A DNA stretch of 64,000 nucleotides from Capsulimonadaceae bacterium (GCA_965277095.1 OZ255718.1:3295594-3359593); one strand, 5' to 3'. Shown: positions 2,082 through 59,351, counted from the first letter of the stretch. Made by a program: numbers and translations. Notes: a model not told the origin generated them from the sequence alone.

Positions 2082-2255
2082 CGCTTGCGGCAAAAGGCTA
2101 CAGGCAAACACCGAAACTTTGGCGGCATCGTTCAGAATAGGGGCTTTGCTTTTTCGTTTCGGCTGTGCTATTATTCAGGAAATTAGTCGGGTGCTTATAG
2201 GGTCATCCGGCAGTCGGAGGCGCTCTCGTTGTCGCTCTCGTTCGGGGGGCAAGCC
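2082..2255 (+). promoter_or_regulatory. ORF-less cassette, family A copy 1/21
   Basis: TCGCTTGCGGCAAAAGGCT..CCGAAACTTTGGC..GGCTTTGCTTTTTCG..GCTGTGCTATTATTCAGG..GGCAAGCC; frames not conserved between copies. Confidence 0.7.
2146..2174 (+). promoter_or_regulatory. putative sigma70 promoter inside family A cassette (worked example)
   Basis: TTGCTT (2146-2151), 17-nt spacer, TGc-TATTAT (2169-2174); same arrangement in 17 of 21 copies. Confidence 0.45.
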
Positions 2256-2347
2256 ATCTAACAATGCGCTGCACCTGACGCCGGTGGTAAGGCTTTCCTG
2301 TCTCACTTCCGCGTTTGCACCGGCGCAGGTGAGCTATGGCGTTAGGT
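2256..2347 (+). repeat. attC site 6 (short subtype)
   Basis: R''=ATCTAAC; R'=GTTAGGT. Confidence 0.9.
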
Positions 2348-2411
2348 CGCAAGGCGCAAGCGGAACAATACTCGAAAGGTGGAAACCCCAAAATTGGAAC
2401 ATGATGTGCCG

Positions 2412-2495
2412 ATGGGTGCTGGCACAGTTTTGGGCGGGATCGTTTTAATCTATCTCATAGTACGCGCATTGGTCTATTTAGTTATCCGCAAGTAA
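2412..2495 (+). CDS. possible micro-ORF, 27-aa TM peptide
   Basis: own translation MGAGTVLGGIVLIYLIVRALVYLVIRK; no clear SD; only hydrophobic ORF in 204-nt cargo. Confidence 0.2.
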   Translation: MGAGTVLGGIVLIYLIVRALVYLVIRK

Positions 2496-2551
2496 ATAAG
2501 CGCCCCAGTGGTATCATATTCTGGTTATAGGCAAACGCTACTACACTTGCA

Positions 2552-2651
2552 ACCTAACAATGCGCTGCACCTGACGCCAGCGGCGCGGTTATCGTGTGCT
2601 TGGCGGGAGTCAAGTGCGTGCCGCTGTCGCAGGTGAGCTAGGTCGTTAGGT
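2552..2651 (+). repeat. attC site 7
   Basis: R''=ACCTAAC; R'=GTTAGGT. Confidence 0.9.
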
Positions 2652-2705
2652 CGCTTGGCATAGAGTTTGCCTGTTTACGAAGTGAGAGAAGAACATGAGG
2701 ACAAG

Positions 2706-3053
2706 ATGAGTTGGGCTAAGTTTGCCATTGAAGCCTTACAACGGGGAGAAACAGTACAAATCCGCCCACGCGGTCACTCCATGAAGGGCAAAGTCAATGA
2801 TGGCGACCTTGTGACTATCGCTCCGTGTGAGCCAGAGACTTTAGCGGTTGGTGCGATACTTTTGGTGCGTGTGCATGGCAACGACTATTTGCACCTCCTC
2901 AAAGCTAGGGATAAAGAGCGGTTTCAGATTGGCAACAATCGCGGCGGCATCAATGGATGGGTTGGAAAGAATAATATCTACGGCAAGGCGATCAAAGTTG
3001 AACCGGGCGATACGAAGCCATTGTCAAAAGAGGCTTTATCTCAAGCCACCTAA
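2706..3053 (+). CDS. stand-alone S24/LexA-like serine peptidase domain protein (115 aa)
   Basis: RGHSMKGKVNDGDLVTI resembles the GDSMxPxxxxGDxV Ser motif, HLLKA a candidate Lys; start moved to ATG 2706 in track ORF 2667..3053; stop in attC. Confidence 0.55.
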   Translation: MSWAKFAIEALQRGETVQIRPRGHSMKGKVNDGDLVTIAPCEPETLAVGAILLVRVHGNDYLHLLKARDKERFQIGNNRGGINGWVGKNNIYGKAIKVEPGDTKPLSKEALSQAT

Positions 3054-3147
3054 CAATGTGCTGCACCCGACGCCACCCGCGCCTTCTCCTGTGCGTCATC
3101 ATCAGGCTTTGCAGTGCGGGCGTCGCGGGTGAGCTAGGTCGTTAGAT
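3048..3147 (+). repeat. attC site 8
   Basis: R''=ACCTAAC (AATGTGCTGCACC variant); R'=GTTAGAT. Confidence 0.9.
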
Positions 3148-3316
3148 CGCTTGCGGCAAAAGGCTACGGGCAAGCACCGAAACTTTGGCAGGCATTCAGA
3201 ATATGGGCTTTGCTTTTTCGGTGAGGCTGTGCTATTATTCGGTCAAGTTGGCGTGGGTCAGGGGCTTTGCGGTGGCGGGGGCGTTCTCGTCATCGCGCTC
3301 TTTCGCAGAGCAAGCC
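3148..3316 (+). promoter_or_regulatory. ORF-less cassette, family A copy 2/21
   Basis: family A ends; TGcTATTAT fused to GGTCAAGTTGGCG module (hybrid). Confidence 0.7.
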
Positions 3317-3415
3317 ATCTAACAATGCGCTGCACCGGACGCCAGCGGCCCGATTTCCTGTGCGTTGTGGTATGCTGTGCAGTGCCGCTGTCGCCGGTGA
3401 GCTTTGCCGTTAGAC
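3317..3415 (+). repeat. attC site 9
   Basis: R''=ATCTAAC; R'=GTTAGAC. Confidence 0.9.
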
Positions 3416-3479
3416 CGCTCTACTGAGGCGGTGCTTTTACCAACGCAATTTGACTGACCAATTACGCAAAAGGACAAAC

Positions 3480-3980
3480 ATGGACATTAAAGGCAAAACT
3501 ATTTGGCAAGTTGCGGCGGGCAATGGTAAAGATACTCATTATGCGAAACGCTGTTTGGATGAAGATGTCATCATATTCGGGCCAGGGCGATATGGCGCGT
3601 GGCCGGATTGTGAGATACCGATGCGCGGCAATGGCTGGACTGCGACGAAAGCCGGAATTATCAGACGTTTTGCCGAGGACGTAAAGCCGGGCGATATTGT
3701 TGTGCTTCGGGTTGGAACGCAGCAAGTTTTCGGTGTTGGCGAGGTTGTTGGAAACTATGGGTTCAGCGAACAGTTTAGCAATGTGCAGGGTTGGGACTTA
3801 CAGCATTATCGGCGGGTGCGCTGGCTATGGCATCAAGGCGGCGAACCGAAATGGTTTCCCGTCTATTCGCTGAAGTTGGGAAGTTCAGTGCAGTATCTTA
3901 CTTCGCCGCAAGTGCGTCATTGGTTAGAGGGATTAAACATTCCGCAAGAAGCGTACAGCGCACCTTTACATGAACTATAA
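3480..3980 (+). CDS. hypothetical protein (166 aa)
   Basis: track ORF 3450..3980; ATG 3480 preceded by AAGGA; loosely resembles 54988..55356 (KPGD(I/R)(V/I) core). Confidence 0.6.
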   Translation: MDIKGKTIWQVAAGNGKDTHYAKRCLDEDVIIFGPGRYGAWPDCEIPMRGNGWTATKAGIIRRFAEDVKPGDIVVLRVGTQQVFGVGEVVGNYGFSEQFSNVQGWDLQHYRRVRWLWHQGGEPKWFPVYSLKLGSSVQYLTSPQVRHWLEGLNIPQEAYSAPLHEL

Positions 3981-4010
3981 ATACTTGTTACATTTTGCTC
4001 TGCCGGAGCG

Positions 4011-57778: not shown

Positions 57779-57872
57779 CAATGCGCTGCACCCGACGCCA
57801 TCGCCCGCCTTTTCGGGTGGGTTATCGCGGGGCTTGCTTGGGCGCTGTCGCGGGTGAGCTAGGGCGTTAGAC
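57773..57872 (+). repeat. attC site 113
   Basis: R''=GTCTAAC; R'=GTTAGAC. Confidence 0.9.
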
Positions 57873-57914
57873 CGCTGGGCGGGAGGCTTTTTTGTCGTCG
57901 TCGGAGGTGAAGGG

Positions 57915-58037
57915 ATGCTTTGGCGAAAACTCTTGGGACTAGGCATTGGCCTCGGTCTTGGCAACTTATTTATGAACTGCTTTCGTGGCAACATCATTGG
58001 GGAACAGCATTTGAGCATTCATTCTTCCAAGCGATAG
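57915..58037 (+). CDS. micro-ORF (40 aa), possibly a frameshifted small membrane protein
   Basis: GGAGGTGA SD 4 nt upstream; MLWRKLLGLGIGLGLGNLF..; another frame continues ..FFQAIALFAAWLLLKPRLPAV into the attC TAA. Confidence 0.3.
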   Translation: MLWRKLLGLGIGLGLGNLFMNCFRGNIIGEQHLSIHSSKR

Positions 58038-58081
58038 CCTTGTTTGCGGCTTGGCTCTTACTTAAACCACGCCTGCCAGCA

Positions 58082-58181
58082 GTCTAACAATGCGCTGCAC
58101 CTGACGCCACCTGCCGCGTTCACCTGTGCAAGTTCGGTTGCCTTACTTGGCAGGTGTCGCAGGTGAGCTATGGCGTTGGGC
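58082..58181 (+). repeat. attC site 114
   Basis: R''=GTCTAAC; R'=GTTGGGC. Confidence 0.9.
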
Positions 58182-58236
58182 CGCAGGGCGTCAGCCTTGT
58201 GCGAGACAATGCGCCGCTGAGGCGCAATGATTTAAC

Positions 58237-58644
58237 ATGGATGAAAAACGCAGCACAGACGAAGAAACAGCACAAAGTTTAGAGCCGAAAATCTGGCCGC
58301 CGCCTCCAACGCAATACCTACCGATGCCAACGGAAGCACAATCTTCCATCACAAAGACACTGCCATACATACTTTATGGTCTGGCAGGTGTGATGGCACT
58401 AATAGGAATGTTCTATGGGCTGGCTTTCATAGGCCGTGCTGATACCGACGAAGAATATCAACAGTTACATGGCGCACTTCGCCTCAGTTTATTAGCTTGG
58501 GGAACAACAAGTGCTTTGTTTTTGACTGCAAACTTGATTTTAACAAAGAGTTGGCTGGGTCGGGTTTTCTGGGTTGTTTTTATAGCTATTGTTTGGTTAT
58601 TTCTTTACCCAGCCTTTGCAATGCGTATGAGCAGCAGTCATTAG
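58237..58644 (+). CDS. membrane protein with N-terminal WPPPP motif (135 aa)
   Basis: ..AQSLEPKIWPPPPTQYLPMP.. then 3-4 TM segments. Confidence 0.6.
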   Translation: MDEKRSTDEETAQSLEPKIWPPPPTQYLPMPTEAQSSITKTLPYILYGLAGVMALIGMFYGLAFIGRADTDEEYQQLHGALRLSLLAWGTTSALFLTANLILTKSWLGRVFWVVFIAIVWLFLYPAFAMRMSSSH

Positions 58645-58681
58645 GCAGAATAGACTACTACGACAGCCCATCCAGCCTGCG

Positions 58682-58781
58682 GCCCAACAATGCGCTGCAC
58701 CCGACGCCAGCAGCCGCATTTACTAATACGAGGCAATATGTTGGTTTAGGCTGCCGTCGCAGGTGAGCTATGGCGTTAAGC
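58682..58781 (+). repeat. attC site 115
   Basis: R''=GCCCAAC; R'=GTTAAGC. Confidence 0.9.
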
Positions 58782-58824
58782 CGCTTCACCGCAGACCTGT
58801 CAACAGCGAAGGCTAGATGAAACC

Positions 58825-59085
58825 ATGTTCTGGCTTGAAAAGGTGCTATATCTGGGAGAAGTCATTCACGATTATGGCTGCGTGTCTGAAGTGAAAAGGA
58901 TAGCGTCCACAGAAAAAACAGAGGCGCTCCATTGTCGGCGTAACGGGCAGGAATACATCATACTTCGTATCACAGTTTCTGGCTGGTTTGGCTTCTATAT
59001 TACCTATTCCTACCTCTCTTTCGGAGCGATTGAGTCGTTGCGAAAAGTTCTGAGTGACATAGCCTCACCCACGGAAGCGGCCTAA
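58825..59085 (+). CDS. hypothetical protein (86 aa)
   Basis: ORF track; stop in attC. Confidence 0.5.
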   Translation: MFWLEKVLYLGEVIHDYGCVSEVKRIASTEKTEALHCRRNGQEYIILRITVSGWFGFYITYSYLSFGAIESLRKVLSDIASPTEAA

Positions 59086-59179
59086 CAATGCGCTGCACCC
59101 GACGCCAGTAGCTGCCTTCACATCTGCGTTAGCGGAGGGTATACTTGGCTACTGTCGCGGGTGAGCTAGGTCGTTAGAT
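59080..59179 (+). repeat. attC site 116
   Basis: R''=GCCTAAC; R'=GTTAGAT. Confidence 0.9.
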
Positions 59180-59351
59180 CGCTTGCGGCAAAAGGCTGTC
59201 TGCAATCGCCGAAACTTTGGCGGCATCGTTCAGAACGGGGCTTTGCTTTTTCTTTTCGGCTGTGCTATTATTCAGGAAATTGGTCGGGGGCTGTGGGGTC
59301 ATCCGATTGTCGGGGGCGTTCTCGTTGTCGCTCTCGTCCGGTGGGCAAGCC
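59180..59351 (+). promoter_or_regulatory. ORF-less cassette, family A copy 21/21
   Basis: TGcTATTAT present. Confidence 0.7.

Follow-up and report, generated by a model that had tools for sequence, protein, structure and literature searches.

Most of the gene-less cassettes tested in Vibrio chromosomal integrons had sense-strand promoter activity and activated the cassettes downstream of them, and according to the data of the same authors attC sites do not terminate transcription (PMC11014356). Cassettes of oral Treponema without an open reading frame (ORF) had been shown to act as promoters before the Vibrio ones (Tansirichaiya et al. 2019, PMC6557892). Through these two sets of experiments the promoter cassette is an established class. 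Here, a 64,000-nt stretch of DNA from a Capsulimonadaceae bacterium (GCA_965277095.1 OZ255718.1:3295594-3359593; referred to below as the window) was analysed for a family of 21 ORF-less integron cassettes, designated as family A. They are genuine cassettes, and their cargo is probably a promoter aimed at the next cassette, as judged from sequence. Since the class had already been demonstrated in Vibrio and Treponema, the mechanism is less new than an earlier note on this DNA had implied.

Family A resembles the Vibrionaceae promoter cassettes (Blanco et al. 2024, PMC11014356) in being bounded by attC sites, gene-less and located in a very long sedentary array. A sense promoter reading through attC into downstream cassettes, as found in the Vibrionaceae, is likewise proposed for family A, and the proposed role is the same, namely the expression of cassettes far from the promoter Pc. 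The Vibrionaceae cassettes are 491-666 bp in length, some of them are decayed genes, their transcription starts are diffuse and lie in AT-rich DNA, and they are not presented as a repeat family as far as they are described in PMC11014356. Family A, in contrast, has a true cargo of ~150 nt in DNA of ~51% GC, consists of 21 mosaic copies accounting for 17% of the array, carries one discrete extended -10 and belongs to a modular superfamily, and its activity is a prediction. The Treponema ORF-less cassettes (PMC6557892) have sigma-70-like promoters able to drive neighbouring genes, as is predicted for family A, but their promoters lie on the antisense strand according to a review (PMC8876359), whereas the promoter predicted for family A lies on the sense strand; they are also few, recovered by polymerase chain reaction and not a high-copy family.

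In Xanthomonas integrons, the sRNA-Xcc1 cassettes (Chen et al. 2011) have in common with family A a content other than protein. However, sRNA-Xcc1 is a defined small RNA (sRNA) family, located next to symE and oriented against Pc, whereas family A is oriented with the array and gives no Rfam or structure signal. The outward promoter Pout of group IIC-attC introns (PMC3001079) offers a further likeness, a mobile element within cassette arrays that reportedly supplies a promoter to downstream cassettes, as family A would. Such introns are ~2 kb long and inserted in attC, whereas family A consists of ordinary cassettes, each having an attC of its own and lacking intron features. Variants of the class 1 integron Pc with a TGN extended -10 were reportedly described by Jove et al. 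in 2010. As in family A, a TGN-extended -10 is said to be preceded in these variants, at a spacer of 17 nt, by a -35 that is weak or imperfect, and the combination drives the transcription of cassettes, as is predicted for family A; unlike family A, which is mobile cargo repeated along the array, the class 1 Pc belongs to the fixed platform (intI1 or attI) and is present once per integron.

In arrays of at least 100 cassettes, the way in which those distant from Pc come to be expressed is a live question in integron research. Promoter cassettes were recently proposed as an answer and have been demonstrated in a few dozen cassettes of Vibrio and Treponema, most of them unrelated. If active, family A would provide the clearest example to date of a compact promoter-cargo cassette, short, with one discrete extended -10, amplified to one-sixth of the cassettes and exchanging modules with its siblings by recombination, and would offer a clean system for mutational tests and for the study of promoter regulation and of selection on position. 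It would also show that the comparison of copies within an array can reveal promoter cassettes where single-sequence predictors fail. If inactive, it would be a striking amplification of a non-coding cassette.

Family A in the cassette array

The window is a single integron cassette array of ~122 cassettes, which runs past both window ends; no intI integrase gene was found within these 64 kb. The attC starts (AACAATGCG...) number 122 and occur on the + strand only, and the attC sites are mostly 97-103 nt in length and end at their 3' side with GTTRRRY. In nearly all array cassettes the start TTRRRY is complementary to the RYYYAAC of the cassette's own attC, and the complementarity of the cassette ends extends array-wide over ~13 bp (GTTAGRYCGCnnn / nnnGCGRYCTAAC). 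All of the 21 family A copies run from TTAGAT, directly after a G, to ATCTAAC, after which comes an attC of 92-108 nt with GTTRRRY at its end, and their end complementarity is 13-14 bp, like that of the other array cassettes. Complementary ends together with an own attC identify them as genuine integrase-mobilised cassettes. The copy limits are G, then TTAGATCGCTTGC... on the 5' side and ...GCAAGCC, then ATCTAAC on the 3' side, and the cargo, counted from GTT to the base before ATCTAAC, is 175-181 nt in length. In copy 16 (44866) a point change is present in attC (AACAATACG); it is otherwise a normal cassette, with its end at 45147.

A window-wide search with the 16-mer GCTTGCGGCAAAAGGC (at most 2 mismatches) gave 21 occurrences versus 0.17 expected, and in the all-against-all BLAST of the cargos the largest family had 21 members, followed by families of 6, 3, 3 and 2. 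Both results bear out the 21 ORF-less copies, about one-sixth of the cassettes, that had been counted in the earlier note, and the range given there, 2082-59351, begins a few bases into copy 1 and stops where the cargo of copy 21 ends. The average distance between copies, 2855 bp, likewise agrees with the ~3 kb reported before, but the distances are irregular (272-12972 bp) and statistically the same as for random placement. The downstream neighbours are as had been claimed, including a ParE-like toxin cassette, a MazF/PemK toxin cassette, other ORF-less cassettes and a protein whose similarity to the L12 C-terminal domain is weak and below cut-off.

The first 13-14 nt of a family A copy pair with the last 14 nt of the "cargo" as part of the attC stem of the circular cassette, a feature found array-wide. 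Adjacent to them, GGCAAAAGGCT represents one form of a leader resembling GGGCGAAAGGCTT, which many unrelated cassettes carry at the same position. The first 25 nt were therefore rejected as a family-A-specific element, since the stem pairing and the leader are both common to unrelated cassettes. A decayed attC as the cargo was also rejected, there being no similarity to attC. As a separate observation, a GTTAGnnCGCTGGGCGAAAGGCTT-like 5' leader (first ~25 nt) is common to unrelated cassettes, e.g. those at 9476, 13476, 20238, 44484, 48003 and 50897; its GGCGAAAGGCT part, past the ~13 bp stem, has no obvious pairing partner, and an extended integrase site is one candidate role.

Promoter-like block and its conservation

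The search with GGCTGTGCTATTATTCAGG (at most 3 mismatches) gave 17 matches, all on the + strand, versus 0 expected from shuffles, in line with the sense-strand promoter-like block previously noted in 17 copies; the position assigned to it in copy 1, 2146-2174, was exact. Subfamily A1 comprises the 17 (out of 21) copies in which the sense strand has this block, that is, TTGCTT, 17 nt and TGcTATTAT. The extended -10 of the block is TGCTATTAT in 16 copies and TGCTATCAT in one, and the -35 hexamers are TTGCTT (12 copies), TTGCGT (2), TTACGT (2) and TCGCTT (1). The "exact 17-nt spacer" of the earlier note held for 16 of the 17 A1 copies and failed for the copy at 50623, in which the spacer is 16 nt. 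The -10 hexamer TATTAT matches the consensus at 5/6 positions, the critical A2 and T6 included, and the TG extension is present. When an extended -10 promoter of the sigma-70 type is defined by TG at -15/-14, a -10 with A2 and T6 and, optionally, a -35 located 16-18 nt upstream, such a promoter is predicted in the 17 A1 copies and not in the four copies of the second subfamily, A2. Extended -10 promoters can do without a good -35. Throughout the window, TGn followed by a -10 matching at 5/6 positions or more occurs 37 times on the + strand versus 11 times on the - strand, and 17 of those on the + strand are in family A.

In the alignment of the A1 copies, conservation is concentrated in islands. 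CCGAAACTTTGGC (columns 37-49) has a mean identity of 0.97 over the 17 copies, and it is followed by TTCAGAA (columns 57-63), by GGCTTTGCTTTTT (columns 68-80, mean identity 0.96), after which the conserved run goes on as CG in columns 81-82, and by (C)GGCTGTGCTATTATTC (columns 86-102, mean identity 0.95). The centre of the spacer (columns 83-86; ~5 nt) is among the most variable parts, with an identity of 0.41-0.76, and indels are common elsewhere in the cargo. Columns past the predicted start have a mean identity of 0.76-0.82, below that of the upstream islands. The constrained part is the ~70 nt upstream of the predicted start. Conservation upstream of the start, with the spacer length kept and its sequence not, is a promoter-like pattern, whereas a less conserved would-be transcript is the opposite of the pattern of an sRNA gene. 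The search for CCGAAACTTTGGC gave 24 matches in the window, 17 of which are in the 17 A1 copies; by direct reading the element is a partial palindrome with 8/12 positions matching, and it is possibly a regulator site.

The array seems to make use of extended -10 signals that have no -35, as suggested by the ParE-type toxin-antitoxin cassette and by TGGTAAAGT of family B, described below. In the former (window 7785-7802) TGGTACAAT ends 6 nt before the antitoxin ATG (7800), without a -35. The placement of TGGTACAAT also suggests a leaderless antitoxin mRNA transcribed from an extended -10 promoter.

Subfamily A2, sibling families and mosaic structure

The four A2 copies (7452, 43503, 49822 and 55472) agree with the rest of the family at both ends and in the 3' half but differ in the 5' half, which resembles that of family B, and carry TTTTCATTC in place of the -10. 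A sigma-54 or extracytoplasmic function (ECF) sigma reading of the A2 5' half was rejected, the spacing fitting only 1/4 copies. The sigma-54-like spacing itself, e.g. at 43556-43575, was noticed post hoc and may be due to chance.

Family B is likewise ORF-less and has a cargo of ~180 nt, in which TGGTAAAGT, an extended -10-like sequence on the sense strand, lies ~70-74 nt before attC, a layout as in family A. It follows family A directly in 4/6 cases, against an expectation of 1.0 (permutation P = 0.008). CGGCTTTTGGCTTGCG, present in four copies of family B, has GG/GC at the -24/-12 spacing of sigma-54 (GGC-N7-TTGC), e.g. at 1055-1075; this, too, was noticed post hoc and may be due to chance. 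Family D comprises two near-identical ORF-less cassettes, in which GGCTTTGCT...GGCTGTG and the 3' end CTCGTTCGGAGGGCAA are the same as in family A and TATTAT is missing; it has the appearance of a promoter-less family A relative. GGCT(N)TTGC is found throughout A1, A2, B and D, also in those that have no -10.

Among the 21 family A copies the identity of the cargo and that of the attC centre are uncorrelated (r = -0.06). The copies at 18572 and 38559, for instance, are 99% identical in cargo and 53% in the attC centre (attC 18751-18850 versus 38738-38840). This uncoupling points to frequent homologous exchange between cassettes or attC sites. The variable segments of the cargo are a handful of alleles in different combinations, and the short ORF-less cassettes (A, B and D; n=29) thus make up a mosaic superfamily shaped by recombination between copies.

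Search for relatives

The 18-mer CGCTTGCGGCAAAAGGCT gave 72 single hits in unrelated taxa among species-representative genomes; none of them had the -10 block or this type of attC, and they were rejected as chance matches. The promoter pattern had no match in metagenome contigs. The attC pattern, in turn, was found at 95 metagenome loci, mostly in whole-genome shotgun (WGS) records JAABU* and in one Hainich groundwater contig. Profiles of families A, B, C and D run with nhmmer on these 95 loci gave nothing but one chance-level match of family D (E = 0.82), and none of the 59 cassette intervals in these loci was shorter than 367 bp. Two hits obtained by a scan of viral contigs were due to chance and were rejected as relatives.

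Proposed function and alternative explanations

The reading as a promoter cassette is partly supported: it appears to fit every point that can be checked in the sequence, and measured activity is its defining test. In the A1 copies (17/21), the extended -10 TG-c-TATTAT, aided by the weak -35 TTGCTT, would be recognised by RNA polymerase carrying the primary sigma factor. We infer that transcription would start ~7 nt past TATTAT, either in the run of A within TCAGGAAA or at TCGGTCAAG, and that the transcript would consist of a variable leader of ~75 nt and continue through attC into the next cassette or cassettes. Deep segments of the array, which are hardly reachable from Pc, would thereby be expressed. 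CCGAAACTTTGGC (~-70/-58) and TTCAGAA (~-50) may be regulatory binding sites for the A1 promoter. In the A2 copies promoter activity may be absent, or another signal may be used.

The mobile promoter cassette put forward in the earlier note fits the motif, the spacer and the conservation. The following points weigh against it. The -35 TTGCTT matches TTGACA at only 3/6 positions and varies between copies, a plain two-hexamer scan of the first 20 kb found a site in only one family A copy, and the use of the canonical sigma-70 consensus by the host is itself an assumption. In gene-less cassettes, moreover, promoter predictors did not track the measured activity (PMC11014356). Four copies, those of A2, are without the promoter motif, and the persistence of A2 and family D without the -10 indicates that a promoter is not the sole reason why such cassettes stay. 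The upstream islands CCGAAACTTTGGC and TTCAGAA are not accounted for by a bare promoter. No regular spacing of the 21 copies was detected, their placement being indistinguishable from random, and this unevenness gives no sign of selection for periodic re-initiation. Since the copies are mosaic and related by descent, their conservation is partly shared ancestry, and the lack of a homologue outside the window in the genome, metagenome and viral collections searched leaves no independent evolutionary test.

Family A may alternatively represent neutral or selfish non-coding cassettes, in which excision, re-insertion and recombination between copies would have multiplied a short cargo that had an efficient attC, the motif being incidental and without a role in the array. 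This explanation is rather unlikely. It agrees with family A being the most abundant family in the array, with the random placement and mosaic make-up of the copies, including the uncoupled identities of cargo and attC, with the persistence of motif-less variants (A2 and family D), and with family A not being found in the other genomes or metagenomes searched. However, islands 95-97% identical lie between stretches of ~70%, one island being the best promoter match and the spacer length being kept; an extended -10 this good is expected in ~5% of 150-nt sense cargos, as estimated from the rest of the window; and amplification driven by attC predicts a conserved attC, whereas the attC centre is the least conserved part of the cassette. 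The extent of the conserved islands, which exceeds the needs of a promoter, could point instead to regulatory DNA for protein binding, with operators for a factor encoded by the host or by a cassette, which would organise, silence or co-regulate the array with or without a promoter. Candidate operators are GGCTTTGC and GGCTGTGC (a direct repeat, 19 nt apart), the partially palindromic CCGAAACTTTGGC and TTCAGAA, and the retention of GGCT(N)TTGC in A1, A2, B and D even without the -10 would agree with them. Such a function is considered quite unlikely: no protein emerged as a candidate binder, the frequency of the motifs outside family A in the window is chance-like, and the islands could be slowly diverging ancestry. 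It would also be compatible with the promoter reading and does not exclude it. A wider proposal is regarded as unlikely. It unites A1, A2, B and D, 29 of the ~122 cassettes, in a single superfamily of dedicated regulatory cassettes of ~180 nt, modular and recombining, whose promoters would be controlled via the upstream blocks by a common trans factor or an alternative sigma; the C at -13, just before the -10 hexamer, and the weak -35 would suit a stress sigma factor such as RpoS. The array would then be split into co-regulated units, and the non-random order of A directly before B would reflect a two-cassette unit.

An RNA as the product, either an sRNA gene (leader plus attC hairpin, acting in trans) or a structured cis RNA (5' half in read-through transcripts), is very unlikely, even though sRNA-encoding integron cassettes are known (sRNA-Xcc1). 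The hairpin after the predicted start (columns 112-119 / 130-137) is the best point in its favour, with 78% of cells paired and 5 double changes; these values are reached by 32-39/500 shuffles and are thus marginal. The CCGAAAC/GTTTCGG helix pairs in 64% of cells, which 82/500 column shuffles reach, and it was rejected, also in a shifted register, as no better than shuffles. RNAalifold gave essentially only the terminal stem related to attC, with a covariation term of 0.02, and the mean folding z against dinucleotide shuffles was -0.3 in the 5' half and -0.8 in the leader (+0.4 and 0.0 for the reverse strand, respectively). A conserved structure backed by compensatory changes and by a stability above that of shuffles, as would mark a structured non-coding RNA, was accordingly not found, and the weak view of RNA structure taken in the earlier note, which had offered an sRNA as its alternative, is confirmed; the covariation check on aligned copies, which had been suggested there, gave nothing convincing beyond shuffles. 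No Rfam match was obtained for the whole window at gathering thresholds, sRNA-Xcc1 included, nor on any family A copy within 1900-13600 at E up to 5, and a known RNA family as the cargo was rejected. An sRNA gene is further opposed by the transcribed part being the least conserved one, by the absence of an intrinsic terminator (24 terminator-like sites in 1-20000, none of them in family A cargo), and by the leader having no antisense match to other cassettes of the window, the best matches being 12-13 nt and on the same strand.

A small protein or a decayed protein gene is extremely improbable. Mechanical ORFs of 30-106 aa do cross individual copies, but no ORF, start codon or frame is shared across the 21 copies, and 1-2-nt indels scattered along the cargo shift the frames, exactly as had been noted before. 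The ORFs longer than 70 aa, present in three copies (77, 91 and 106 aa), all begin in the preceding attC, and the two longest also enter the copy's own attC. No Pfam match of family A was obtained at E up to 1 save one at chance level. A coding cargo was rejected for the want of a common frame, the scattered indels and the lack of a Pfam match, and, apart from the three ORFs that begin in a preceding attC, family A is gene-less in the sense of no ORF >210 bp (Blanco et al.) together with no frame conserved between copies.

Positions of the cassettes and other features of the array

The positions of the copies of family A and of the other ORF-less families are collected in Table 1.

Table 1. 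Window positions of the family A copies, with their promoter-like elements, and of families B, C and D
Feature	Position	Strand	Extended -10	Remarks
Copy 1 (A1)	2076-2347	+	TGCTATTAT 2166-2174	cargo 2076-2255, attC 2256-2347; -35 TTGCTT 2146-2151; predicted start ~2181
Copy 1, upstream block CCGAAACTTTGGC	2111-2123	+		~-70 to -58 from predicted start
Copy 2 (A1)	3142-3415	+	3230-3238
Copy 3 (A1)	4564-4846	+	4652-4660	cargo nearly that of copy 2, attC centre differs
Copy 4 (A2)	7452-7726	+		different 5' half; TTTTCATTC replaces TGCTATTAT
Copy 5 (A1)	8361-8641	+	TGCTATCAT 8450-8458	-35 TTACGT
Copy 6 (A1)	12665-12944	+	12755-12763	followed by family B cassette
Copy 7 (A1)	13202-13482	+	13291-13299	followed by MazF/PemK toxin-antitoxin cassette
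Copy 8 (A1)	16486-16766	+	16576-16584	-35 TTGCGT
Copy 9 (A1)	18572-18850	+	18661-18669	followed by family B cassette
Copy 10 (A1)	20793-21071	+	20883-20891
Copy 11 (A1)	33765-34044	+	33854-33862	-35 TCGCTT
Copy 12 (A1)	38559-38840	+	38648-38656	cargo 99% identical to copy 9, attC centre 53%
Copy 13 (A1)	39901-40183	+	39991-39999
Copy 14 (A1)	43231-43508	+	43318-43326	-35 TTGCGT; copy 15 directly next
Copy 15 (A2)	43503-43779	+		without TGnTATTAT
Copy 16 (A1)	44866-45147	+	44956-44964	attC start ATCTAACAATACG
Copy 17 (A2)	49822-50097	+		without TGnTATTAT; followed by family B, family D, copy 18
Copy 18 (A1)	50623-50903	+	50711-50719	the only 16-nt spacer
Copy 19 (A2)	55472-55749	+		without TGnTATTAT; copy 20 directly next
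Copy 20 (A1)	55744-56022	+	55833-55841
Copy 21 (A1)	59174-59453	+	59263-59271	followed by family B cassette
Family B (6 copies)	1008-1288, 12939-13207, 18845-19116, 42510-42790, 50092-50371, 59448-59724			ORF-less
Family C (3 copies)	12327-12670, 36514-36864, 44142-44490			ORF-less cargo of ~250 nt
Family D (2 copies)	29210-29472, 50366-50628			ORF-less, near-identical

In family C, TGATACAAT or TGATAAAAT is kept on the minus strand near the 5' end and may be an antisense promoter directed toward the upstream cassette. Repeated GCGTTTTTGCYAAAACGAAC-like motifs are also carried by this family.

In ~9 cassettes the preceding attC contains the ATG at which the longest sense ORF begins, 5 nt ahead of the GTT crossover point. 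The attC 3' ends with such an ATG, GGTGAGCTATGGCG followed by TTAG, are located e.g. at 9471, 15189, 15662, 16149, 17310, 23989 and 39316. Those cassettes would then obtain both their start codon and the GGTGAG immediately upstream of it from the attC of the neighbouring cassette.

Transposase genes are present inside cassettes 90, 99 and 120, at 45785-46606 (-), 51305-52126 (+) and 61778-62773 (-), respectively. Two of the three are of the IS5 family, identical and in opposite orientations, and the third is of the DDE_Tnp_1/DDE_5 type (IS4-like). Their relatives are found in Proteobacteria (IS5, plasmids) or in metagenomes, with one from Chloroflexota at 65% identity. The stretch 9471-10694 encodes a 407-aa ankyrin-repeat protein, which is followed by a 226-aa ORF without a Pfam match, in a cassette of 1985 bp that is unusually large for this array.

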